From positions 1 through 44,694 of the forward strand of contig JBAXJW010000001.1 of NCBI GenBank assembly GCA_037137635.1: a stretch of DNA of 44,694 nucleotides, read 5' to 3'. The translations under genes were made by a program, and so were the position numbers. This document shows positions 7,958-33,906 of the stretch, piece after piece; position 1 is the first letter of the stretch, and each line of letters opens with the position of its first letter. The notes beneath the pieces are model-generated. The model saw nothing but the letters and a program-made list of their open reading frames with translations. It did not search any database and was not told where the DNA came from. Source of the stretch: a bacterium. GTDB lineage: Bacteria; Bdellovibrionota; UBA2428.

Positions 7958-8668
7958 TTATTTTGTAGGTGTGGCACCTGGTGCTGGAGCTCCCCCACCA
8001 GAATCTTTTCTTTTAATGTATTCCACAATATCTTCATCTTTGAAGGATTCAGGTTTATCACAAGCCATGTTCTTCAGATAGACAGGAGCTATTCCCACTC
8101 CGTTCGCATCCGTAGGATAAACAATGACAGCTGACTTACCTGTTTGCCCAGGAATAAACTCCACTCGACTTCCGTCATTATGCAAAAAAACAGCCCCTAC
8201 TCTATTTATAAGAGGCTTCAAGTTTTGTTTATCTATTAACCGCTTACGTCCCTTACTAAATTCCAAAACTCTTTCGACTTCAGTGCCTCTCATTGCGTAA
8301 AATTCTGAACGATTATTTTTTAATTTTTTTTGAAAAACAAAGGTCACCTCACCCCTGTCTCCTAGAACTTGGCTGAGTTCCCAGAGAAAATAAGTTTTAT
8401 CTCCATCTTTCTTTAGGTAGTCACGAAAAATTCTTCTTATTCTTTTACCATTACTTTTTATGGACCAAGGAATTTTATCAACGGTTCCACAAGTACTTAT
8501 GTGAGAAACTCTAAGATCTCCCGTGGTGGGATCGTAACTCAGTTTTTCAAATTTTTGCTCAGAAGAAACAGAGCCTTCAATCTTAGGAGTTTTTTTAGCG
8601 CATAAAAAATGATGCAAAGAAAAAAATAAAATGAAAAAAAAACCCTTCAAAAAAGGCGTAGCTCTCAT
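7958..8668 (-). CDS. secreted/periplasmic protein, function unknown
   Basis: 236 aa with an N-terminal signal-peptide-like segment (MRATPFLKGFFFILFFSLHHFLCA) and a Gly/Pro/Ala-rich C-terminus. Its ATG overlaps the stop of the upstream gene by 4 nt. I recognise no LptA/OstA-like sequence. Confidence 0.5.
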   Translation of the reverse strand: MRATPFLKGFFFILFFSLHHFLCAKKTPKIEGSVSSEQKFEKLSYDPTTGDLRVSHISTCGTVDKIPWSIKSNGKRIRRIFRDYLKKDGDKTYFLWELSQVLGDRGEVTFVFQKKLKNNRSEFYAMRGTEVERVLEFSKGRKRLIDKQNLKPLINRVGAVFLHNDGSRVEFIPGQTGKSAVIVYPTDANGVGIAPVYLKNMACDKPESFKDEDIVEYIKRKDSGGGAPAPGATPTK

Positions 8669-9846
8669 GTTTTTATTATGCCATAAATCCCAGATAGAAC
8701 GCGCTTTCGAGCCATGACTCGACGCTTTTCTTTGTAGTCACGATGGCTACTGCGCCCCCTTAGATTTTCTACGTAAGATTCCTTGTCCGTTATTTGAATC
8801 TCATAAGGATAATAAAAGGCTTTTCTTTCTCTCAAAACGATTGGAAAAGATTTCAAGAATCTCCTACCCGAAATTGTTTTTTCAAGCTGTTCTCTTATTT
8901 TTTCAAAAACCGGCAAGATTGAATTTTGCACGTGAACTAAATGCTGACATGTAAACTGCAAAGAACGATAGTGAGGAGAACTAAAGGAATTTTTAACTCC
9001 CGCTTCACCCACAGACATAAGAGGAATATCAAGCAAAGAATATTTTTTATCCGCCTCTGAGGGAGAAAGCCTTCCTGCTTCTACGTCTTTTCTTAAAGAC
9101 TCCATATTTTCATGAATGACTTTTATATCTAATAAATTATTAAAAGATTTTCTGGGTTGAATATTCGCATATGAAATCGCACCCAATTCAAAAAACTTTT
9201 CTACTAATCGAATCGCATCAATTTTTTTTTCAACAACAAAACGAAACCCTAAGCTATCGTAAATTAATTCGACATCGTTTTGCGCCTTTGAAATGAGTTT
9301 AACAATCATGGAATTTCGTTCTTTTTTAACTTTTTTCTGATAACGAACAAGAGGAACACCCTCTTCTCCTGGTTTACCAAAACTCCATTTTCGAGGTGCA
9401 ATTTGTCGAACAAAGGGATCAAACTGAGCAAATATTTTCTCACGAGCAGTGTGAAAGTTTTCTAATTTCAAATCATTATCCAGATGTGAAATCGTATGCA
9501 TGACTCGAAGGATCGCACATGCCCAACCAGAGCGCTCACCTTGTGGTACAGAAGCTTCTACAAGTAATTTTAAAATATCATTCTGACTTGTCCGTTCATA
9601 AAAAGACGGAGGTAGCTTTTCATTTGCTTCCAATAAAACGTTTCGAATAAAATTGAGGGCTTCAAAATACACCCTCCAAATTTCTTCATAAGTTATCGGA
9701 TCATCAACATCGTAGCCGTAGGCTTTTAAAAAGGTTTTTGCTTCATTTTTTGTTCGAACATTTAAATGTGAAAAATCAATAATCGATTCCCCAGAAATTG
9801 TTTGATTGATGGGGAGCCAATCATGATGCCACTGGCTTGATGCCAT
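8665..9846 (-). CDS. divergent RelA/SpoT-domain-like (nucleotidyltransferase-fold) protein, function unknown
   Basis: 393 aa. The C-terminal half carries, in the canonical order, degenerate versions of the RelA/SpoT synthetase motifs: KxxxSxxxK (VKKERNSMIVKL), DxxGxRxV (DSLGFRFVV), YxSxQ (HYRSLQ, His replaced by Gln) and EIQI (YPYEIQITD, Arg missing). The N-terminal ~180 aa is helical and unassigned. Confidence 0.45.
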   Translation of the reverse strand: MASSQWHHDWLPINQTISGESIIDFSHLNVRTKNEAKTFLKAYGYDVDDPITYEEIWRVYFEALNFIRNVLLEANEKLPPSFYERTSQNDILKLLVEASVPQGERSGWACAILRVMHTISHLDNDLKLENFHTAREKIFAQFDPFVRQIAPRKWSFGKPGEEGVPLVRYQKKVKKERNSMIVKLISKAQNDVELIYDSLGFRFVVEKKIDAIRLVEKFFELGAISYANIQPRKSFNNLLDIKVIHENMESLRKDVEAGRLSPSEADKKYSLLDIPLMSVGEAGVKNSFSSPHYRSLQFTCQHLVHVQNSILPVFEKIREQLEKTISGRRFLKSFPIVLRERKAFYYPYEIQITDKESYVENLRGRSSHRDYKEKRRVMARKRVLSGIYGIIKT

Positions 9847-9862: not shown

Positions 9863-10417
9863 TTACCAGTCACGATCATCTTCGGAGTCGCTATCGCTAT
9901 CACTCTTTTTATCATCATCAGCCCATTCGTCGTCTTCGGTCCATTCATCTGAATCGTCGAAGTTTCCACGGTCGCCCTCCTCCTCATCTTCCGCTCCTTC
10001 AATCGCAGCTGGATCGCTTTTCCACCAAGCTGGAGGGCCATCCGTGTCTTTATCATCTTCAAACTCTTCGAGTTTTGTTCGTGCTTTTTCATCTTCTTCG
10101 AAGTCATCGACTTCGCTATCAGCCAACACATAGGAAGCAGCTAGCTCTTCTTTTGGAAGAATTTTAGAAAGAGCGACTGCGGGAGCTGCCTTTGTAAGAG
10201 GCTTCGCGGCTTTTTCACCTGATTTTTTAGTCTCGGTTGATTTTTCTGAGCTCTTTTTTGAGGGCTTCTCCTTCGATGCAGCTTTATTTACTTTTTTAGC
10301 CGCAATTTTTTTTGGAGCGCTCGTCTTTTGAGCTTTGGGTGCCTTAGGAACCTTTGAGGCTTCCTTTGGTGCTTTTTTAGTATTTTTACTTTTACTCGCC
10401 ATATGTCCTAAAAACAT
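9863..10417 (-). CDS. bipartite low-complexity protein with Lys/Ala/Pro-rich histone-H1-like N-terminus and Asp/Glu/Trp-rich acidic C-terminus
   Basis: 184 aa (179 aa if it starts at the second ATG at 10402, MASKSK, which has an AGGA 3 nt upstream). Residues ~6-85 are KKAPKEASKVPKAPKAQKTSAPKKIAAKK-type. Residues ~100-184 are strongly acidic with W residues (DEWTEDDEWADDD ... DRDW). The other-frame ORFs here are low-complexity artefacts. Confidence 0.55.
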   Translation of the reverse strand: MFLGHMASKSKNTKKAPKEASKVPKAPKAQKTSAPKKIAAKKVNKAASKEKPSKKSSEKSTETKKSGEKAAKPLTKAAPAVALSKILPKEELAASYVLADSEVDDFEEDEKARTKLEEFEDDKDTDGPPAWWKSDPAAIEGAEDEEEGDRGNFDDSDEWTEDDEWADDDKKSDSDSDSEDDRDW

Positions 10418-10430
10418 TTACAAAGGGCTA

Positions 10431-11066
10431 GTGGGACTTGTGTCAAGAACAGATTTAAAAATTCTTTACGAAGATCATAATTTATTAGTTATTTGTAAAC
10501 ATGCAGGTGTTCACAGTAACGAGCTTGAAATAGAACGCGGTGCGCAATTGTTTAAACCAGTTCATAGAATCGATTATGAAACACAAGGCCTTCTTCTATT
10601 TGCCACTGATAGCGCCTGGAAGACTTATAATGAATTATTTTTGGGTCACTCAATACAGAAGGTCTATCTTGCAGGCGCCCCTTACAAACAAAGCTGCGTT
10701 GGAAAAAAAGAAGGTTTTATAGCCTCTCGCTACCGGTCCTCAAAAAAAACCTCTTATGGAGAAGATTCTGAAAAGTTTCGTTCTTTTCATTCCGTACTCG
10801 AATCCAAGCACATTGTCCGTGAATCTCAAGAAAAGATAAACTTCACGGGCCATATATTTGAAGTCGATCTGATTTCAGGCCGAAGACATCAAATCAGAAG
10901 CTACTTCGCATCCCAAAAGTGTCCCTTAAGAGGCGATAAACTTTACGGAGATATTAGCCCTCAAAAAACACTTGAGCTTTTTAGTTGGAAATTAAACTTT
11001 ATAGATCCTCTTTCGAAAAAAGAAATATCTCTTCAAGCTCCAACTTCTTTATTTACCATTGAATAA
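10431..11066 (+). CDS. RluA-family pseudouridine synthase (catalytic domain only)
   Basis: Motifs HRIDYETQGLLLFA (catalytic Asp) and GRRHQIR. The track ORF starts at 10335 but would overlap the divergent gene by 83 nt. The in-frame GTG at 10431 (VGLVSRTDLKILYEDHNLLV) removes the overlap and fits where the catalytic domain begins. There is no S4 domain. Confidence 0.7.
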   Translation: MGLVSRTDLKILYEDHNLLVICKHAGVHSNELEIERGAQLFKPVHRIDYETQGLLLFATDSAWKTYNELFLGHSIQKVYLAGAPYKQSCVGKKEGFIASRYRSSKKTSYGEDSEKFRSFHSVLESKHIVRESQEKINFTGHIFEVDLISGRRHQIRSYFASQKCPLRGDKLYGDISPQKTLELFSWKLNFIDPLSKKEISLQAPTSLFTIE

Positions 11067-12442
11067 TTCTTGGCCCATAAATGATCCTTTAATTGCGCTA
11101 TGTTTTTGATTTTTAAAACTTGAGCTCCGACTGGAACTGAAATCTTTTTTGAATTTCCACTTTCAGACACAATTATTTTTTTAAAACCCATTCGAGAAGC
11201 TTCTTTCGCTCGAATATCTAAATGCTGAACGGACCGAATTCCTCCTGTAAGACTCACTTCTCCTAAAAGCAAGACGTCCTCAGGAATACTTTTATCCAAA
11301 CGAGCAGAAGCCAATGCTGCTGCAATTGCTAAATCAGCCGCCGCCTCTTCAATCCGGGCTCCTGCTGCAACTTTCACATAAACATCGTAATTAGAAAAAT
11401 CTATTCCATATTTTTCAAGAACCGCTAACAAAAGGGCTACGCGATTTTGATCTATGCCTTGAAATGTTCTTCTAGGAAAGCCTTGAAAACATCTTTGTAC
11501 AAGCGCTTGAATTTCAACAAGAAAACACCTTGTCCCATCGACAAGAGCAGCCACAGATGTGCCTGAAACTCCTGTTTGTCGCTCAGACAAAAACTGCTCA
11601 GATGGATTTAAAACTTCGACCAATCCGTCTTCTGACATTTCAAAAACAGCTGATTCGTTTGCAGAACCAAAGCGATTTTTCTGCGTTCGTAAAATTCTCA
11701 AAGCCCCCTCATGCAAACTTTCAAAATAAAAAACGGCATCCACCATGTGCTCTAAAAGTTTAGGCCCTGCGAGAGATCCATCTTTTGTGACATGTCCCAC
11801 CATCACAACAATACATTTTCTTGATTTTGCAATTTCTAAAAACTTCTGTGTGATCTCTCGTATCTGGCTAATCGTTCCCGCACTTGATTCAAGAGTAGAG
11901 GTTGCTAGCGTCTGCACACTATCTACCACAATAAAATCAGGTTCGTAATTTTGAATAAGTGATTCAGCTTCCTCAATATTATTTGTCGAAAGAAATTGAA
12001 TACTGCCTAGATCAAGACCCAATCTTTTTGCACGATCGGCAACTTGAAGACCCGACTCTTCTCCGCTCACGATAAGACATTTGTAACTTTTGCTTAACTT
12101 ACCCACAATTTGCAAAAGAAGAGTTGACTTACCAATCCCCGGAATTCCTCCCACAAGCAAAAGAGAGTTCCACAAAAAACCGCCGCCCAAAACGCGATCA
12201 ACTTCTGGAAAAAAAGAAGAAACTCTTTTTGAGAAATTTTCATGCGTAAAAGTATTCAAGCTCTGAATACTTGGAACCTCGCCTGAATTCATCTTTGATG
12301 AAGATTTAGAATTTTTAGGGAGTTTAGCTTCTTTAAATTCAACAAGTGAATTCCAAGCTCCACACTCAAAACACTTACCACTCCACTGAGCGGATTCCCC
12401 ACCACACTCTTGGCAAACAAAATGGGTTTTTAATTTCGCCAT
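11033..12442 (-). CDS. radA: DNA repair protein RadA/Sms
   Basis: 469 aa with an N-terminal zinc finger CQECG-x9-CFECGAWN, Walker A GIPGIGKST, the RadA-specific KNRFG motif and a Lon-like C-terminal domain. Confidence 0.93.
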   Translation of the reverse strand: MAKLKTHFVCQECGGESAQWSGKCFECGAWNSLVEFKEAKLPKNSKSSSKMNSGEVPSIQSLNTFTHENFSKRVSSFFPEVDRVLGGGFLWNSLLLVGGIPGIGKSTLLLQIVGKLSKSYKCLIVSGEESGLQVADRAKRLGLDLGSIQFLSTNNIEEAESLIQNYEPDFIVVDSVQTLATSTLESSAGTISQIREITQKFLEIAKSRKCIVVMVGHVTKDGSLAGPKLLEHMVDAVFYFESLHEGALRILRTQKNRFGSANESAVFEMSEDGLVEVLNPSEQFLSERQTGVSGTSVAALVDGTRCFLVEIQALVQRCFQGFPRRTFQGIDQNRVALLLAVLEKYGIDFSNYDVYVKVAAGARIEEAAADLAIAAALASARLDKSIPEDVLLLGEVSLTGGIRSVQHLDIRAKEASRMGFKKIIVSESGNSKKISVPVGAQVLKIKNIAQLKDHLWAKNYSMVNKEVGA

Positions 12443-24250: not shown

Positions 24251-25054
24251 TTAACGATTTCCAATGTTATCGTCGATATCATCTACTTGGTCAGAGACCG
24301 CAACGTTACCGTTTATTTCTCCGGATGAATTTTGATGGTCATCAAATTGAGCTCTTCTGACGTTATCATTCTCAGGTCTGCGCGGATTTTTGTTAGGACC
24401 GCGGTTACTAAAGTTTCGTGGGCCATGCCCTTTTCTAAAACCTCCACCTTGTGGACGATTTCCGCCTGAACGAGGATTCGCATTTCCTTTTTCTACAGAT
24501 CGAGAAGTATCGTTGATAAGTTTCACACGAATTCTTTTATAGGTTCCGTTCCCAATACTTTCGCTGGTTACTTCTCCCAAGGTTGCAAGGTGAGTGTGAA
24601 TCACTCTTCGTTCTGAAGGACTTAATGCTGGAATATAAGTAGGACGTCCATTGTTGCTTATAACTTTTTCACGAGACTCTTCAGCAATTTTTTTAAGTCC
24701 TTCGTAATGACGATCTCTGAATCCTTCAGCGTCAACAGTGACCCTATATTTACTTAAGTCAGTTCCTTCTTCGATAGCTTTATTTGCTAATCCTTCTTGT
24801 TTACGAAGAACACGCATAGAAATATGAGCGAGAGCATCGAGAATTTGTGTATTTTCTCCGAGCATACTCATAACTTCTTCGCCTTTAACTTCAATGTGAT
24901 GACTTCCATCATCTTTTTGGTGTCGATCGAATTGGATGTCATACCCCATTGCGCGAGGAAGCCCTTCTAAAAATTGATCAAGGTTTACAACTCCTTGAAC
25001 TTCTTCTTCCTTTGAAATACCAAATAAACTAAGAGCAGATTTTACAATATTCAT
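24251..25054 (-). CDS. jag: Jag/KhpB RNA-binding protein (Jag_N, KH, R3H) with Arg/Gly-rich tail
   Basis: 267 aa with an R3H motif region SPSERRVIHTHLA. Conserved position downstream of yidC. The C-terminal ~85 aa form a low-complexity RG/N-rich tail. Confidence 0.85.
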   Translation of the reverse strand: MNIVKSALSLFGISKEEEVQGVVNLDQFLEGLPRAMGYDIQFDRHQKDDGSHHIEVKGEEVMSMLGENTQILDALAHISMRVLRKQEGLANKAIEEGTDLSKYRVTVDAEGFRDRHYEGLKKIAEESREKVISNNGRPTYIPALSPSERRVIHTHLATLGEVTSESIGNGTYKRIRVKLINDTSRSVEKGNANPRSGGNRPQGGGFRKGHGPRNFSNRGPNKNPRRPENDNVRRAQFDDHQNSSGEINGNVAVSDQVDDIDDNIGNR

Positions 25055-25057
25055 TTT

Positions 25058-26653
25058 TTAACTTTCCTTCCCTAAGAGAATGCTTTGATTTGTTGCGATG
25101 CTGGTTTTCTTTCTAAAGAAAAACTGCTGACTCATCCCCGCTAAATTACTTACTAAGAAATACAGGTTCAGGCCAGACGGAAAATCTTTAGATACAAATC
25201 CAAAAACGACAAACATAATTCGTGAAACCCACTTCATGTCGGGCATTCCTGGCTGCGAAGAGGTTGGCTGCGGATTTAATTCCACAGAAATAATTAAACT
25301 AATTGTCCAAATAACAGGAAGCACATAGTACGGATCGTGATAAGAAAGATCATGTATCCATCCAAAAAATGGTGCTTGATATAAATCTACTGCATTTGAA
25401 AGAGCACTATTTAATCCAAAGAAAATTGGGATTTGTAAAAAAACAGGAAGACAAGAACCAAAGGGGTTCACTCCAGATTTTTTATAGAGAGCTTGAATTT
25501 CTTGATTCATTTGAAGGAGTTGATCATTTTTTCCTTCGAATCTTTTCTTGATTGCTTCCATCTGGGGCTGAATATCCTTCATCTTTTGACCAGATTCGAA
25601 CATCTTTTTATTGATCGGCCATAGAAGAAGACGAACAATCAAAGAGAGAATAATAATTGAGATTCCATAGTTAGATGTGAGTCTAAAAAGAGTCTCCAAA
25701 CACCACAACATAAAGCGAGAAATGCCACTGAAATAACCAAAATCGATTGTTTCAACAAGGTCTGCTTTCACAGAACGAAGTTCCTGCAAATCCTTCACTG
25801 CAAAATATAGATCAAAATTGTAAGAAAGTTTTGTTGTATCAGGAGACCACTTTAAAGGGTAAGCAACACCCCATAAAACTCTTCCCGTATCTTCACTGCC
25901 TTTTTGATAATAAAGATCGGGATTGTAGCGACCTTTTGGAATAATATTTGTGGAGAAATATTTATCCCCCCATGAAATCCATTCATAAGGACCAGAGCTT
26001 CGAACGTTTTCTTCCCACAGTTTCTTATCTCGAATTCTTTCTGTTTTAGATTCTTTCTTTTTTAAAGCAAGATAATGGTGGTCTTGTATGATTCCCTTGC
26101 CAACTCCATCTTCTGTTTCAAAAAAAACATCTCCGCTTATTTCTTTATCAGATTGAATATCAAAAGCTGTTTCTAAAATTAAGTTGTTGAGTTTGTATTT
26201 TACGCTACAAGAAACTCCCTCAAATTGAGCTGAATATGTTAAGTCTCCAGAGGAAGATAAGTTTTTCAAACACTTATCCACACGGACATCACTTGAGCGC
26301 CAGTGAAACCCGTTTTTAATAATTTCAACGTTGGTTTTTGTTTCTTCGCCTCGATTAAAATATTTTGTAAAAAAAACGTTTCCAATGCCAGCATTGGAAA
26401 AGAGATTAAAATTTCGAGAGTTATTAACGTCTATTTTTTTTGCAGTCTTTTTTAAATCTTCAGAAATCTTAGGAGTGGAAGAATTACTGTTTTGGCTGAC
26501 AGCTCCTGGAAGCTTAGGGATTCCAGAACTTACCACCTGCGAAGAGGGGCTTTCTTTTGGAACATATTTTTCCTGATAAGGAGTTAAAATAAAATGTTGA
26601 TACGCAGCCATAGCTGCAACAAAAAAACCAATGATAATCCAATTACGATTCAT
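25058..26653 (-). CDS. yidC: membrane protein insertase YidC
   Basis: 531 aa with an N-terminal TM helix, a large periplasmic domain and a C-terminal 5-TM 60 kDa insertase core. It sits in the rpmH-rnpA-yidD-yidC-jag cluster. Confidence 0.9.
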   Translation of the reverse strand: MNRNWIIIGFFVAAMAAYQHFILTPYQEKYVPKESPSSQVVSSGIPKLPGAVSQNSNSSTPKISEDLKKTAKKIDVNNSRNFNLFSNAGIGNVFFTKYFNRGEETKTNVEIIKNGFHWRSSDVRVDKCLKNLSSSGDLTYSAQFEGVSCSVKYKLNNLILETAFDIQSDKEISGDVFFETEDGVGKGIIQDHHYLALKKKESKTERIRDKKLWEENVRSSGPYEWISWGDKYFSTNIIPKGRYNPDLYYQKGSEDTGRVLWGVAYPLKWSPDTTKLSYNFDLYFAVKDLQELRSVKADLVETIDFGYFSGISRFMLWCLETLFRLTSNYGISIIILSLIVRLLLWPINKKMFESGQKMKDIQPQMEAIKKRFEGKNDQLLQMNQEIQALYKKSGVNPFGSCLPVFLQIPIFFGLNSALSNAVDLYQAPFFGWIHDLSYHDPYYVLPVIWTISLIISVELNPQPTSSQPGMPDMKWVSRIMFVVFGFVSKDFPSGLNLYFLVSNLAGMSQQFFFRKKTSIATNQSILLGKES

Positions 26654-26945
26654 AATGACTCAAAATATATCTAGGTGTGGGTGGATCGAAAGATAACGTA
26701 GGAGTTGACCAAGGATTACACCTGATAATTCTTGCAACAGATCGAATTACGTTTTTAAAGCTAAAGTCCTCTAACAATAGAGCTTCTGCATAATGAGAAC
26801 ACGAAGGATGGAAACGACATCCAGAAAAGCCAAAAATTTTAATAAACGGAACAATAAAAGTTCGATAACCAACAAAAGATTTTTGAATTATGAAAGACTG
26901 AAGAGATTGAACTTTTTTACTTCTTGAGAAAGAAAGGGTGCCCAT
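26643..26945 (-). CDS. yidD: membrane protein insertion efficiency factor YidD
   Basis: Contains the YidD signature CRFHPSCSHYA ... RCNPWS. The track ORF starts at 26999. I prefer the internal ATG at 26945 (MGTLSF...), which gives 100 aa and reduces the overlap with rnpA. Confidence 0.8.
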   Translation of the reverse strand: MGTLSFSRSKKVQSLQSFIIQKSFVGYRTFIVPFIKIFGFSGCRFHPSCSHYAEALLLEDFSFKNVIRSVARIIRCNPWSTPTLSFDPPTPRYILSHYES

Positions 26946-27286
26946 TCTTTGGTCTGAATTGATTGATTTAATTTTTTGTTTCGATTGAATCTTATCCATA
27001 AACTTTGCCTCGGACTAATTGAGAGGCCCTCAGAGCGATGCCATTCTTTAATAATTCTTTTCCACCGATTACGAAGAACGGCATTTCCAGCTGTTCTAGG
27101 AATCGTGACTAAAAGCGGTTTCACCAAGTCTTGAGTATTATTTTTCCACTCAATTTGAGACATGTGAAAAAGCGAAGAACAAGACGAACTTCTTTTTAGA
27201 AGCTTAAAGCGCTCAGGTCTTTTTTGAGCCTTCTTCATTTTACGAGCAGTCGAAGGCTTTTCAGCAATTTTGCTTTTATTCACCAT
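26888..27286 (-). CDS. rnpA: ribonuclease P protein component
   Basis: 132 aa basic protein with the RNR-type motif LRNRWKRIIKE. It lies directly downstream of rpmH. Confidence 0.8.
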   Translation of the reverse strand: MVNKSKIAEKPSTARKMKKAQKRPERFKLLKRSSSCSSLFHMSQIEWKNNTQDLVKPLLVTIPRTAGNAVLRNRWKRIIKEWHRSEGLSISPRQSLWIRFNRNKKLNQSIQTKEWAPFLSQEVKKFNLFSLS

Positions 27287-27381
27287 AAAATGTGCGTTTT
27301 ATAAAAACAGTCTTTTTTGCGATTATTTAAACTCTTAAAACAATGTTTATTAGAAGTTTATATAAACCTTGAAAAAATCAA

Positions 27382-27546
27382 CTATTTCTTTCTTCCGCGC
27401 TTAGAACTCACAGCAACAGCAATCTTTTTTCTGCCCTTGCGGCGGCGACGACTTAAAGTCTTTCTTCCACCAGGTGTTGCCATGCGTTCCAAAAATCCGT
27501 GAACGCGCTTTCTTTTTCTCTTGCTCGGTTGATATGTACGTTTCAT
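27382..27546 (-). CDS. rpmH: 50S ribosomal protein L34
   Basis: Not in the ORF track because it is under 60 aa. Manual translation of the minus strand from ATG 27546 gives [54 protein letters not shown]. This is a canonical L34 N-terminus with a short basic C-terminal extension. Confidence 0.93.
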
Positions 27547-27653
27547 AGAGCTAAGTCTTTATGGCATATGTTTGTGGGCCGCACAATCCCTCAAATTAAG
27601 ATGATGAAAGAAAATAGCAAAAAAAAGACCGTCTAAGAAAATAAATCGAATAA

Positions 27654-28805
27654 ATGGACACACAACAAGAGATTTTTCCCTTTGATAACTTCAAAACTAA
27701 AGAAGGCCTTGAAGCTAATCCGCTTGGACAAGAAGAAACTTCTCGTTATCCGGGAAAAACCGTTACTACTCAGTTTGGAGAGTCTTTAACTCCCAAATAT
27801 TCTTTTGATACTTTTGTTGTAGGTAAAAGCAATCAATTTGCCCATGCCTCAGCTGTTGCAACAGCTAATAAACCCGGAATTTATAACCCTCTTTTTATAG
27901 TTGGAAAGACGGGTTTGGGTAAAACGCACCTTTTAAAAGCTATTGGATATAGAATTCTCACAGATATTCGTCCTGGAGCCAGGATTTGTTATCGATCTAC
28001 CCAAAAATTTATCGAAGAAGTTATTCAGTCTATTCGTCACGACACACGTCACGAGCTTCATGAACGTTATCAAACAAATTGTGATGTTCTGTTAATGGAT
28101 GATATTCAATTTTTATCGAGATCTGTTTCAACTCAAGATGAGTTTTTTCGTATTTTTAACGCTCTTTTTGATAACGGAAAACAAATCGTCATTACCTCAG
28201 ATCGCCTTCCAAAAGAAATTCAAGACATTAACGATCGAATTATTTCACGTTTTGAAATGGGTATGGTGGCCGATATCGACGCGCCAGAACTAGAAACGCG
28301 TGTTGCAATCCTCAGGGCTCGTGCAGAGACAGATAACGTAACCCTTTCAGATGAGGTCGCACACCTTATAGCCACTTACGTAAAAGCAAATATTCGTGAA
28401 TTGGAGGGCTGCCTGACAAAACTCGCTGCACACGCTGCGATTTATAATGAAGACATCTCAGTTGCTCTCGTAAAAAAACTTCTCAAGGGTTACGCGGGCG
28501 AGCGACAAAAGGTAATTACACTTGATGAAATCATCAGTGTTGTTTCACATTATTTTTCTGTAAAATCAGCTGAGATCAGAGGTCCCTCTCGAAAGGCCCC
28601 TGTTTCGAAAGCTAGACAAATTGTGATGTTTTTAGGAAAAGATCTCTCGAAACTAAGCTGTACCTCTATTGCAGAAGAGCTTGGCAATCGCCACCACACA
28701 ACAGTTCTTCATGGTCAAGCCTTTATTGAGAAATCAATTCTTAAGGATCCAGTTCTTAAAACTCAAATTCAACAAATTGAAGAAACTCTTTTAAAGACTC
28801 TCTAA
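27654..28805 (+). CDS. dnaA: chromosomal replication initiator protein DnaA (lacking N-terminal domain I)
   Basis: 383 aa with the domain III entry LTPKYSFDTFVVGKSNQ, Walker A GKTGLGKTHLL, Walker B LLMDDIQF and the domain IV signature RHHTTVLHG. An in-frame TAA sits immediately upstream of the ATG. Confidence 0.93.
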   Translation: MDTQQEIFPFDNFKTKEGLEANPLGQEETSRYPGKTVTTQFGESLTPKYSFDTFVVGKSNQFAHASAVATANKPGIYNPLFIVGKTGLGKTHLLKAIGYRILTDIRPGARICYRSTQKFIEEVIQSIRHDTRHELHERYQTNCDVLLMDDIQFLSRSVSTQDEFFRIFNALFDNGKQIVITSDRLPKEIQDINDRIISRFEMGMVADIDAPELETRVAILRARAETDNVTLSDEVAHLIATYVKANIRELEGCLTKLAAHAAIYNEDISVALVKKLLKGYAGERQKVITLDEIISVVSHYFSVKSAEIRGPSRKAPVSKARQIVMFLGKDLSKLSCTSIAEELGNRHHTTVLHGQAFIEKSILKDPVLKTQIQQIEETLLKTL

Positions 28806-28831
28806 AATCCAAATTTAAAACATTGAATAAC

Positions 28832-28877
28832 CTGTGGATAACTCAGGGATAACTCTGTGGATAACTCAGGGATAAAC
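28832..28877. repeat. 23-bp tandem direct repeat, each copy carrying two DnaA boxes
   Basis: The sequence ctgtggataactcagggataa occurs at 28832-28852 and again at 28855-28875. The two copies are identical over 21 nt. Confidence 0.9.
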
Positions 28878-28933
28878 TATGAATTCCATGTTTTCCAATT
28901 GTTTTCCCTTATTTATCCACAGAGTTATCCACG
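28833..28933. promoter_or_regulatory. oriC DnaA-box cluster (six boxes)
   Basis: TGTGGATAA at 28833 and 28856 is the perfect complement of TTATCCACA. CAGGGATAA occurs at 28844 and 28867, TTATCCACA at 28913 and TTATCCACG at 28925. Spacing within each group is 11-12 bp, and the two groups have opposite orientation. Confidence 0.85.
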
Positions 28934-28949
28934 CACTTTATTCAACAAA

Positions 28950-29045
28950 ATCATATACTTAACTTAGTTACGCCATACAATTCATATATACATATATAAT
29001 TAACAACAACTTATTAATTATAATACTAGTCAAAAATGAGAAAAA
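28950..29045. other. AT-rich putative DNA unwinding element of oriC
   Basis: About 95 bp of very AT-rich sequence (e.g. ttcatatatacatatataattaacaacaacttattaattataatactag) lies immediately right of the last DnaA box and upstream of the dnaN RBS (AAGGTGG). Confidence 0.6.
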
Positions 29046-29101
29046 CTTAGGGAAAACTTGCTCTGTTCAATATGAAAGAATCCAATTAAGGTGGGGAAAG
29101 A

Positions 29102-30229
29102 ATGGAATTTACGATTGATAGAAGTCTGTTTTTGGAAGGATTAGAAAAAACTTTAAGTGTTGTCGAAAAAAGAAACACGATGCCTTCTCTAAACCATGCG
29201 TTGATAGATATTAAAGAAGATCAACTACAAATATCTGCAACGGATTTAGAAATTTTTGTAAGCGCAAGTGTTCCTTGTAAAGTCACAACATCTGGAAGAA
29301 TTGCACTTCCTGCAAAAAATCTTTATGACATTGTTAAAGAACTTCAAGCAAGTGAAGTTAAAATTAGAGGTCTTGAAAATAATCGTGTCGAAATAAAAAG
29401 TGGAAAAAGTTTATTTCGTTTAATGGGATTAGCAGCAGATGATTTTCCACACTTCAAAACATCTCCTAAGGGACAACTTTCAACTGGAAGATTGAAAGTA
29501 AAAGAATTTTTAAAATTAATTCAAAAAACTGAACATTGTATATGCCATGAAGAATACCGATATGCTCTTACAGGAATATATCTTGAATATTTAACGGAAG
29601 ATGGAAAAAGTAAATTAAGAGCAGTGGCAACAGATGGACATCGGTTATCCCTTATGGAATGCCCTGTGGATAAGTTAGGGAATGTTAAGCTCACAAAAGG
29701 AATGATCATTCCTCGAAAAGGTGCGGCAGAACTTCGAAAACTTTTAGAATCTACAAATGAAGAAGAATTTGAATTAACTTGCGATGAAAATTTAATTCGA
29801 GTGAATCTTGGAAGATTTAAAATTTGGATTAGACCTCTTGATGCGGAATATCCTGATTATAGAAGAGTTCTTCCTGGAGAACTTCCCAGTAAATTCTTTT
29901 GTCGTAAGTCGGATTTAAGTTCTGCTTTAAAAAGAATGTCCCTCCTTGTTTCAGATCGTTCAAGAGTTGTTGCTTTTGATTTTCAAAAAGAACGCTTACA
30001 ACTTTCAACACAAAACCCTGATTTAGGAGATGCAAACGACGAACTTTCAGGAGATTTTACAGGAAATACTGTAAAAGCCGGGTTTAACGCAAAATTTTTC
30101 TCAGAAGCGCTTCAGAACTTTACGGATGAAAAAATAGTTCTTCACGTAGGAGAAGCTTTGCAGCCTGCGGTTATTAAGGCTCCTGCAGAAGAAGGCATGA
30201 CCATTGTGATTATGCCTATGAGACTTTAA
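29102..30229 (+). CDS. dnaN: DNA polymerase III subunit beta (sliding clamp)
   Basis: 375 aa with a three-domain clamp pattern and a C-terminal ...VIMPMRL typical of DnaN. A strong SD lies upstream. Confidence 0.93.
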   Translation: MEFTIDRSLFLEGLEKTLSVVEKRNTMPSLNHALIDIKEDQLQISATDLEIFVSASVPCKVTTSGRIALPAKNLYDIVKELQASEVKIRGLENNRVEIKSGKSLFRLMGLAADDFPHFKTSPKGQLSTGRLKVKEFLKLIQKTEHCICHEEYRYALTGIYLEYLTEDGKSKLRAVATDGHRLSLMECPVDKLGNVKLTKGMIIPRKGAAELRKLLESTNEEEFELTCDENLIRVNLGRFKIWIRPLDAEYPDYRRVLPGELPSKFFCRKSDLSSALKRMSLLVSDRSRVVAFDFQKERLQLSTQNPDLGDANDELSGDFTGNTVKAGFNAKFFSEALQNFTDEKIVLHVGEALQPAVIKAPAEEGMTIVIMPMRL

Positions 30230-30247
30230 TCAAAAGTTTCCCCTGAG

Positions 30248-30320
30248 TTGTCCACAGTGGATCACAATGGATAAGTTGATTGAAAAATTATCAAATGACT
30301 TGTGGATAAGTGATGGATAA
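30248..30320. promoter_or_regulatory. second DnaA-box cluster (dnaN-recF intergenic)
   Basis: TTGTCCACA at 30248 (1 mismatch), AGTGGATCA at 30256, AATGGATAA at 30266, TGTGGATAA at 30301 (perfect) and GATGGATAA at 30312. Confidence 0.65.
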
Positions 30321-30337
30321 CTTTATAACCTGCATCT

Positions 30338-33906
<3,569 letters not shown>

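Follow-up and report, generated by a model that had tools for sequence, protein, structure and literature searches.

The stretch of DNA analysed here, hereafter the window, comprises 44,694 nucleotides (nt) of contig JBAXJW010000001.1 (assembly GCA_037137635.1; Bdellovibrionota, lineage UBA2428). On its minus strand, at 8665-9846, lies a complete open reading frame (ORF) which runs from ATG to TGA and encodes 393 amino acids (aa) plus stop; the ORF list confirms it as described in an earlier interpretation made from the letters alone (the sequence-only reading). The gene product has the fold of a RelA/SpoT homologue (RSH) synthetase and keeps nearly the whole set of donor-site residues. RSH enzymes are the central producers of alarmones in bacteria, and divergent branches of the superfamily have lately been found to make ppApp or to pyrophosphorylate tRNA. 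The protein is a highly diverged synthetase member of this superfamily, and its own family is already curated and widespread, with uncharacterised function. It is probably an active ATP-dependent pyrophosphokinase, that is, a diverged RSH synthetase which is chromosomal, vertically inherited, not a toxin, and additional to the housekeeping Rel.

The sequence-only reading had called the protein an orphan, and this proved wrong. The protein matches the NCBIfam profile TIGR04562 with 300.3 bits (cutoff 140; aa 10-384 on profile positions 2-355 of 356) and TIGR04552 with 288.9 bits over its full length (cutoff 125), and an identical protein is present in NCBI under the record name “TIGR04552 family protein.” A 90%-clustered database holds 92 homologs. 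Relatives, common in predatory bacteria, are encoded by at least 583 genomes in a scan that took one genome for each species. The bulk of these belong to Bdellovibrionota (Bacteriovoracaceae, Bdellovibrionaceae, Pseudobdellovibrionaceae, Oligoflexia, and Halobacteriovorax), and those listed also include Myxococcales, Sericytochromatia, and a few more. An exhaustive HMMER search of 1.84 billion cluster representatives with the family profile gave 889 proteins at E ≤ 1e-3, a number which counts clusters at 50% identity, and 340 at E ≤ 1e-30. Canonical RSHs, although far commoner, were not retrieved at significance from these representatives, and the TIGR04552 family thus forms a discrete, mid-sized sequence island. 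Its members, such as Myxococcus xanthus MXAN_4858 and Bdellovibrio sp. NC01 DOE51_RS08710, are like the window protein in length, N-terminal domain, and motifs. The window protein falls within a Bacteriovoracaceae subclade with its own synteny, whose members are at least 43% identical to each other and about 30-34% identical to the rest of the family. Over the gene, the window is 99% identical to CANIGN010000017.1, a contig of a Bacteriovoracaceae metagenome-assembled genome (MAG). The G+C content of the window is about 38-40%.

The diverged RelA/SpoT-type synthetase fold proposed in the sequence-only reading is supported by Pfam, by profile searches of the PDB, and by structural comparison; the proposal depended on a profile or structural match to this fold, and matches of both kinds were found. 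RelA_SpoT (PF04607) is the only Pfam match of the window protein, with E 0.0037 and 18 bits, below the gathering cutoff of 27 bits, and it is the relatives that pass this cutoff. PF04607 is matched at E ≤ 0.01 by 35 of the 47 aligned family members (best E 8.4e-9). Seven of ten members tested score above the cutoff, at 28-35 bits, and two of these align over profile positions 1-110 of 113. Since the above-cutoff homologs match the window protein at E 1e-36 to 1e-57, its Pfam membership is transitive, via the family. Compared with all PDB sequences, the family profile gave nine matches, all of them RSH proteins (YwaC at E 0.0023, RelSeq at 0.0026, then Mtb Rel, RelA, and others). In these HMMER alignments the first two synthetase motifs (Syn1 and Syn2) and the fourth (Syn4) with the helix that follows it are covered, and a family sub-profile raises the RelSeq match to E 1.4e-4. 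A single-sequence phmmer search of the PDB returned only noise (MoaE, E ~1).

From the alignment of 47 sequences, AlphaFold2 gave a confident model (mean pLDDT 88, pTM 0.80). Its comparison with PDB structures by Foldseek, one of the checks proposed with the sequence-only reading, lists RelP, RelQ, Rel, RelA, and Tas1 nearly throughout down to rank ~48 (best E 9.2e-4, probability up to 1.00), and the target-normalised TM is 0.47-0.57 for small synthetases. The first unrelated match has a probability of 0.14 and is TdT, a nucleotidyltransferase that is itself Pol-beta-like. A fold search of BFVD gave weak matches only, among which are phage RelA/SpoT proteins. With hhalign, the family profile was aligned to a synthetase profile of five long-RSH sequences, obtained from the PDB search results and the genome of E. 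coli, at E 6.4e-5, whereas the control alignment with the HD hydrolase domain gave E 0.19 and Prob 0.3%. Against the single E. coli RelA or SpoT sequence, Syn4 alone was aligned, at low probability. The extended hhalign register is consistent with what HMMER gave separately for Syn1/Syn2, and also with where the strands lie in the model. A chance likeness of motifs on an unrelated fold would accord with the sub-threshold Pfam score of the single sequence and with a phmmer search of the PDB that found nothing relevant. This explanation is refuted by Foldseek, the PDB profile search, the Pfam matches of other members, the conservation, and the negative HD-domain control, and its probability is practically negligible.

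The four RelA/SpoT synthetase motifs stand in the canonical order, as the sequence-only reading had it, and direct translation, the HMMER and hhalign register, and conservation in the family alignment concur on this point. The counts given here refer to that alignment of 47 sequences, which share about 30% identity (34% mean column identity). K175, S179, K183, D197, G200, E349, Q351, G364, H368, and Y371 are invariant in all 47. Syn1, the ATP-triphosphate motif (KVKKERNSMIVKLISK, aa 172-187; 9286-9333, minus strand, like all the features of the gene given below), was aligned by HMMER to KSRVKSFESIVNKLMRK of YwaC and by hhalign to KHIYSIYRKM of Rel. Its layout is K172-V-K-K175-E-R177-N-S179-M-I-V-K183-L-I-S-K187. 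The canonical Arg at position -2 is lost, being V173 in the window protein and E, A, P, or V in the family; K172 and R177, each found in 45 of the 47, are family-specific basic residues near the missing Arg. Syn2, DSLGFRFVV (aa 197-205; 9232-9258), was aligned by HMMER and hhalign to IYDLLAVRILV and HDIAGVRI. Position 202 is R in 42 sequences and K in 5, and the model has a strand at 200-205. Further on come a helix and a beta-strand, the latter formed by N228-I-Q-P231-R-K233-S-F-N236-N-L (9133-9165; strand 229-236 in the model), with N236 invariant. By eye it resembles the canonical P-G-R-F-K-D (RxKD), to which it may be equivalent, the alignment here being not significant.

The third motif (Syn3), or G-loop, is Y293-R-S-L-Q297 (8956-8970) within HYRSLQ (292-297); the extended hhalign register places YRSLQ on YQSLH, at the start of strand 296-307 of the model. 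The near-canonical distance from the Tyr to the Syn4 Glu in members without insert 2 speaks for the same register. Y293 is found in 46 of the 47 sequences, position 295 is S in 26 and A in 14, and Q297 is kept in 43, with K in the other 4. The replacement of the His of YxSxH by Gln had been noticed correctly from the sequence, and so had the change of EIQIRT to YEIQITD, with the Glu and Gln kept (E349 and Q351, both 47/47) and the Arg lost. The best-aligned segment of the protein is Syn4 with the next helix, P347-Y-E349-I-Q351-I-T-D354...G364-x3-H368-x2-Y371-K372 (8731-8808), which was aligned to RelSeq, Mtb Rel, and E. coli RelA and SpoT. Syn4 itself (PYEIQITD, aa 347-354) is carried by strand 341-354. 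Its “RT” is replaced in the family by D354 (46/47) preceded by Thr or a hydrophobic residue, and K372 is equally conserved (46/47). The protein terminates in a basic C-terminal helix, 21 aa past the Syn4 helix motif. R301 is present in 44 of the 47; the window protein and its nearest relatives have Q at this position.

The spacing of the motifs locates two inserts. From the Syn1 Lys to the Syn2 Asp there are 22 residues, as against 21 in canonical long RSHs. The distance from the Syn2 Asp to the G-loop Tyr is 96 as against 44, so that insert 1 amounts to about 52 extra residues and not to 90. The unusually long insert noticed between the second and third motifs is thus real and shorter than the ~90 aa first estimated, and another of about 30-40 aa, between the third and fourth motifs, had been missed: the distance from the Tyr to the Syn4 Glu is 56 (about 27 in members without insert 2) as against 16. 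Beyond this point the positions of Gln, Gly, His, Tyr, and Lys relative to the Syn4 Glu (+2/+15/+19/+22/+23) are the same as in long RSHs. Insert 1 (aa 237-292; 8971-9138), which is not present in canonical RSH synthetases, consists of two helices (241-256 and 262-270 in the model) and a long loop, and contains the invariant N286. Insert 2 (aa 308-340; 8827-8925) is a helical hairpin between beta4 and beta5 (helices 310-321 and 325-333). It is gapped in the family members P0064, P0079, P0082, and P0092, and many representatives match the profile as two stretches.

In the structure of FaRel2 with APCPP, the donor adenine is bound by R64, G93, R95, E145, and Q147, the triphosphate by R64, K66, S70, K74, and R77, the Mg2+ by D90, and the acceptor base by the G-loop Tyr128 (PMC11782079). 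The equivalents in the window protein are K175, S179, K183, (K187), D197, G200, R202, Y293, E349, and Q351, all of them invariant or nearly so; K175, S179, and K183 correspond to FaRel2 K66, S70, and K74, and D197, G200, and R202 to D90, G93, and R95. By this correspondence, ATP-Mg2+ would occupy the canonical donor site, with K175, S179, K183, and K187 on the triphosphate and D197 on the Mg2+. The donor adenine would be contacted by G200, R202, and Q351, and E349 would act as the conserved Syn4 Glu, whose FaRel2 counterpart hydrogen-bonds the donor adenine. The beta,gamma-pyrophosphate would then be passed to the 3′-OH of a ribose, with the acceptor base stacked on Tyr293 of the G-loop. The acceptor pocket appears to be rebuilt family-wide, through N236, N286, the replacement of His by Gln297 and of Thr by Asp354, and the loss of the EIQIRT Arg, and the two helical inserts, which flank the G-loop, would be part of this remodelled pocket. 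The product is most likely an alarmone-like 3′-pyrophosphorylated purine nucleotide, which may differ from (p)ppGpp.

The same alterations could also belong to an inactive pseudo-enzyme, an RSH-fold scaffold with a regulatory role which does no more than bind a nucleotide or a partner. The Syn1 -2 Arg, the G-loop His, and the “RT” of EIQIRT are all lost, the inserts are large, and there is an extra domain; moreover, inactive catalytic domains are known in the superfamily, such as the pseudo-hydrolase domain of RelA (Atkinson 2011). However, the Mg2+ Asp, the Syn4 Glu and Gln, the Lys/Ser/Lys of the triphosphate site, and the stacking Tyr are invariant or found in 46 of the 47 sequences, at about 30% identity and across several phyla, a pattern typical of purifying selection on catalysis rather than on a scaffold. 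A pseudo-enzyme is therefore improbable, and the conserved donor chemistry, combined with an acceptor pocket that is conserved but different, favours an active pyrophosphokinase.

Another chemistry on the same fold, either nucleotidyl (AMP) transfer or the pyrophosphorylation of a non-nucleotide acceptor, would agree with the remodelled acceptor side, and the RSH synthetase domain does lie within the Pol-beta-like nucleotidyltransferase superfold, to which the weak TdT match points. Classical nucleotidyltransferases carry an hG[GS]...DxD triad, unlike the RSH-type pattern. The residues of the window protein are of the RSH type (a single Asp with the Glu and Gln of EIQ, a K-x3-S-x3-K helix, and a GxxxHxxYK helix), and the base-stacking Tyr is kept, which leaves this alternative only a slim chance.

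Several points weigh against an active pyrophosphokinase with the canonical donor site. FaRel2 R64, which contacts the adenine, the ribose, and the alpha/beta phosphates, is without a counterpart, its position being E, A, P, or V in the family. As the Syn1 -2 Arg is not conserved, donor binding must differ somewhat; from their position, K172 and R177 may be regarded as candidates to compensate for the missing residue. The change of His to Gln, that of RT to xD, and the inserts could mean a different acceptor or even a different chemistry. At the level of the fold, the window protein taken alone remains under the Pfam gathering score (18 as against 27 bits), the Foldseek E-values are modest, and the global root-mean-square deviations are large, owing to the inserts and the extra domain. 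In the hhalign comparison the Syn4 block alone is significant, and the register of the full domain needs a permissive extension. Lastly, no biochemical data were found in the searchable literature for any member of the TIGR04552 family.

An active pyrophosphokinase with a rebuilt pocket might also use an acceptor other than GDP/GTP, ADP/ATP, or tRNA-CCA and so make an undescribed 3′-pyrophosphorylated signal. The pocket envisaged in this case would comprise Gln297, Asp354, N236, N286, the two helical inserts, and the Cys/His face of the N-terminal domain. This is a possible but doubtful form of the proposal. If true, a novel 3′-pyrophosphorylated signal would be characteristic of predatory and gliding lineages, namely, Bdellovibrionota, Myxococcota, and some Sericytochromatia.

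The N-terminal part of the protein is an all-helical, family-specific domain (aa 1-145; 9412-9846), in which D24, F39, Y43, and G44 are invariant. The sequence-only reading had recognised its helical nature and given it a length of ~180 aa; it spans about 145 aa, and in the model residues 146-172 belong to the catalytic core, as beta-strands which lead into Syn1. The absence of a recognised motif, noted at the same time, holds in that the domain is without a Pfam match and without a separate PDB fold match in Foldseek, but the domain has an invariant motif of its own (W108-x-C110...H117...H121). This lies in its most conserved helix, ERSGWACAILRVMHTISHLDND (aa 104-125; 9472-9537), where W108, C110, and H117 are invariant and H121 nearly so. 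The spacing of C110, H117, and H121 (i, i+7, i+11) would place them on the same face of the helix. A degenerate HD hydrolase domain was considered and rejected, since the similarity of aa 1-150 to five HD domains is undetectable with hhalign (Prob 0.3%, E 0.19). The first 100 aa are acidic, with an isoelectric point (pI) of 4.9, as compared to a pI of ~10 for the catalytic-core segment and 9.4 for the whole protein. The 145-aa domain is probably a regulatory or substrate-selecting module.

Among known enzymes, the small alarmone synthetases (SAS) RelP and RelQ (SAS2 and SAS1; PDB 6EX0, 6EWZ, 5DEC, 5DED, and 6FGK) are the best structural matches. They have the beta-sheet core in common with the window protein, their Syn1, Syn2, and Syn4 are in register with it, and the G-loop Tyr is kept. 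RelP and RelQ are only ~210-230 aa long, whereas the window protein, with 393 aa, has in addition the 145-aa helical domain and the inserts of ~52 and ~30-40 aa; it also differs from them in lacking the Syn1 -2 Arg, in the change of YxSxH to YxSxQ, and in that of EIQIRT to EIQIxD. Its length, extra N-terminal domain, and two inserts exclude a classical SAS of the RelP/RelQ/RelV type, which consists of the synthetase domain (SYNTH) only and measures ~200-250 aa. The helix after Syn4, unlike that of RelP and RelQ, follows the GxxxHxxYK pattern of the long RSHs, namely, Rel, RelA, and SpoT (PDB 1VJ7, 5XNX, 6YXA, 7OIW, and 5IQR), with which the protein also shares the spacing from the Syn4 Glu to the G, H, Y, and K. 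It differs from the long RSHs in having inserts on both sides of the G-loop strand. A long RSH is excluded as well: no HD domain is detectable by hhalign, Pfam gives no HD or TGS match at E ≤ 10, and there are no ACT or other C-terminal regulatory domains. These domain tests agree with the view of the sequence-only reading that the protein resembles neither a housekeeping Rel/SpoT nor the classical small alarmone synthetases. DsRel/SAS-TPR (Tde-SAS of Treponema denticola) is likewise a two-domain SAS of ~400 aa, and SAS-TPR homologues have been found in Deltaproteobacteria too (DsRel paper). Identity with this enzyme is rejected, as in DsRel/SAS-TPR the catalytic domain is N-terminal and the TPR domain C-terminal; the order is reversed in the window protein, which has no TPR match. 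By its own account of methods, the classification of SAS into 30 subfamilies left out very divergent sequences (Jimmy et al. 2020).

The toxic SAS comprise FaRel2, CapRel, and PhRel2, which are tRNA-CCA pyrophosphokinases, and FaRel and Tas1, which are (pp)pApp synthetases. They provide a further explanation, according to which the window protein pyrophosphorylates the terminal adenosine of CCA at the 3′ end of tRNA or another RNA, with the same donor chemistry. The donor set of FaRel2 (K66, S70, K74, D90, G93, R95, E145, and Q147) and the acceptor Tyr of its G-loop are shared, with the exception of R64, and Tas1 is a weak fold match. The catalytic core and the whole protein are basic, as would suit an RNA substrate. 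In the tRNA-targeting FaRel2, the positive patch on the acceptor side is reduced (PMC11782079), and the loss of the basic EIQIRT Arg and the gain of D354 near the acceptor side may be linked to this feature. On the other hand, the window protein is much larger than the toxic SAS, and its first 100 aa are acidic, whereas the N-terminal region of FaRel2 serves tRNA recognition. Toxic SAS are recognised by a conserved bi- or tricistronic unit that also encodes an antitoxin or immunity protein (Jimmy et al. 2020) and have a toxin-antitoxin, immunity, or secretion context; at the loci of the TIGR04552 family examined there is none, and no antitoxin-like overlapping arrangement of two or three genes is kept across the family. 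PADLOC gives no match, hundreds of species carry the gene as a single chromosomal copy passed on vertically, and the frameshift and transposon mutants described below are viable, with no signature of a toxin locus. A tRNA- or RNA-modifying enzyme is for these reasons rather improbable. A toxin-antitoxin or defence role in general was also rejected, given that no conserved partner was found across 80 loci and that the enzyme has no PADLOC or PHROG match and its two neighbours none in PADLOC.

The genomic context of the gene was compared across family loci. Downstream, on the same strand, follow d236 (a gene of 236 codons), lptB, rpoN, hpf, and metK; upstream lie u184, after a gap of 16 nt, then a divergent RluA-type pseudouridine synthase gene, with radA beyond. 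The sequence-only reading had placed the gene just upstream of lptB-rpoN-hpf. The order is right, with one gene (7958-8668) intervening before lptB. The synteny of the window is kept in every one of the ~15 family loci whose protein is 43% or more identical to that of the window, all of which are from Bacteriovoracaceae or Bdellovibrionota MAGs, with extra genes occasionally present between d236 and lptB. The lptB-rpoN-hpf synteny is absent from all of the ~68 family loci examined at 29-34% identity, which weakens its value as the functional hint it had been taken for. What best explains the rpoN/hpf neighbourhood is local synteny inherited within one subclade, not a functional link across the family. 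No alarmone hydrolase and no antitoxin-like or immunity-like partner is shared across the 80 family loci. As had been stated, no housekeeping Rel/SpoT is encoded in the window: neither a long Rel/SpoT nor a second paralog was found there, and the sole similarity to E. coli RelA in the whole window is the EIQ motif of the 8665-9846 gene. In the promoter and terminator scans, sites were no more frequent than in shuffled sequence; the operon structure is therefore deduced from short gaps and overlaps only.

Among the syntenic loci, L002 has a tRNA U5-methyltransferase-like gene (8133-9413) inserted between d236 and lptB, and L001 a LemA gene with an unknown gene (10114-11636) between rpoN and hpf. 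In the distant loci (L019-L085), annotated by eye, about 24, including those of Bacteriovoracia and Halobacteriovorax, have a divergent PgpA-like gene, about 19 of them with recA recurring upstream. In loci of the Bdellovibrionaceae type a GYF-like protein and a PlsB-like acyltransferase follow the family gene, in Oligoflexia loci a thioredoxin-like gene lies upstream, and another group of distant loci has an FAD-type gene. Membrane-lipid genes recur near family loci (PgpA-like, PlsB-like, and the lptB neighbourhood in the window), which might matter.

Of the two companion genes, u184 (minus strand, ~179-184 aa) lies 16 nt upstream of the enzyme gene, at 9863-10402, or to 10417 by the listed ATG. 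Its synteny is confined to the Bacteriovoracaceae subclade, within which it is always directly upstream of the enzyme gene. Judged by the orthologs, its start is likely the ATG at 10402 (MASKSK...) rather than that at 10417. In the ortholog alignment its N-terminal half is disordered, rich in Lys, Ala, and Pro, and histone-H1-like, and its C-terminal half is very acidic, with an invariant Trp motif, EGPPxWWKxDPxGIE...FDDSDEWTEDDEW (alternatively given as EGPPxWWKxDP...DDSDEWTEDDEW). No family match was obtained for u184 in Pfam, NCBIfam, PADLOC, or PHROGs. A perfect TTGACA lies about 40 nt upstream of the ATG at 10402 (10418-10446, minus strand) and is followed by an A/T-rich stretch; the consensus scan scored no full promoter there.

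The second companion, d236 (236 aa; 7958-8668, minus strand), is placed by its synteny and by a translation overlap, its start overlapping the stop of the enzyme gene (ATGA). Only 16 homologs, at 43% identity or more, are found among 5.8 billion proteins, and d236 is the true near-orphan of the locus. Its N-terminus is a hydrophobic signal or anchor, and Cys60 and Cys203 are invariant. The AlphaFold2 model is beta-rich (pLDDT 70.6) and has no significant PDB match (best E 0.056). The gene product appears to be an exported beta-rich protein. It occupies the position of lptA/lptC in Proteobacteria, and a divergent LptA/LptC at the head of the lpt cluster was therefore considered; this was not supported, as ten orthologs gave no Pfam or NCBIfam match and no Lpt protein is among the fold matches.

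Two observations concern the rest of the window. The RluA-family ORF (10335-11066, plus strand) overlaps the N-terminus of u184 by about 80 nt when read from its listed TTG start, and its Pfam match begins at aa 63; its true start is probably further downstream. The region 24251-33906 is the chromosomal replication-origin region, where jag(R3H)-yidC-yidD-rnpA (minus strand) face dnaA-dnaN-recF-gyrB (plus strand). The minimum of the cumulative GC skew and the switch of gene orientation are both at about 27-29 kb, and the RSH-like gene is about 18 kb from dnaA.

Earlier studies touch on the family at a few points. In the RSH census, B. bacteriovorus is listed with Rel[HS] only, and M. xanthus has one unclassified “SYNTH” protein, YP_633016.1 (Atkinson 2011). 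By its accession numbering, the latter is probably MXAN_4858. The Rel-only listing implies that the TIGR04552-family member of B. bacteriovorus was missed by the census, and it is also on this listing that the family enzyme is considered, as part of the favoured interpretation and with the same better-than-even confidence, as additional to the housekeeping Rel. In the literature searched, TIGR04552 is named in two papers only. The fitness pattern of M. xanthus transposon insertions in MXAN_4858, a gene close to the G1 gliding cluster, was dampened and motility-like in development, and one of six evolved lines of Bdellovibrio sp. NC01 had a single-nucleotide indel (frameshift) in the family gene at a frequency above 75%. 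Both observations indicate that the family gene is dispensable under those conditions. No functional study of MXAN_4858, or of Bdellovibrio or Myxococcus family members, was found in the literature searched.

The family represents a discrete and widespread branch of the RSH superfamily, with an intact donor site, a conserved non-canonical acceptor site, and an extra domain. The limited genetic data from M. xanthus hint at a link with motility and development. Knowledge of the family's product would reveal if a second alarmone-type signal exists in Bdellovibrio-like predators and myxobacteria beside the (p)ppGpp made by Rel.

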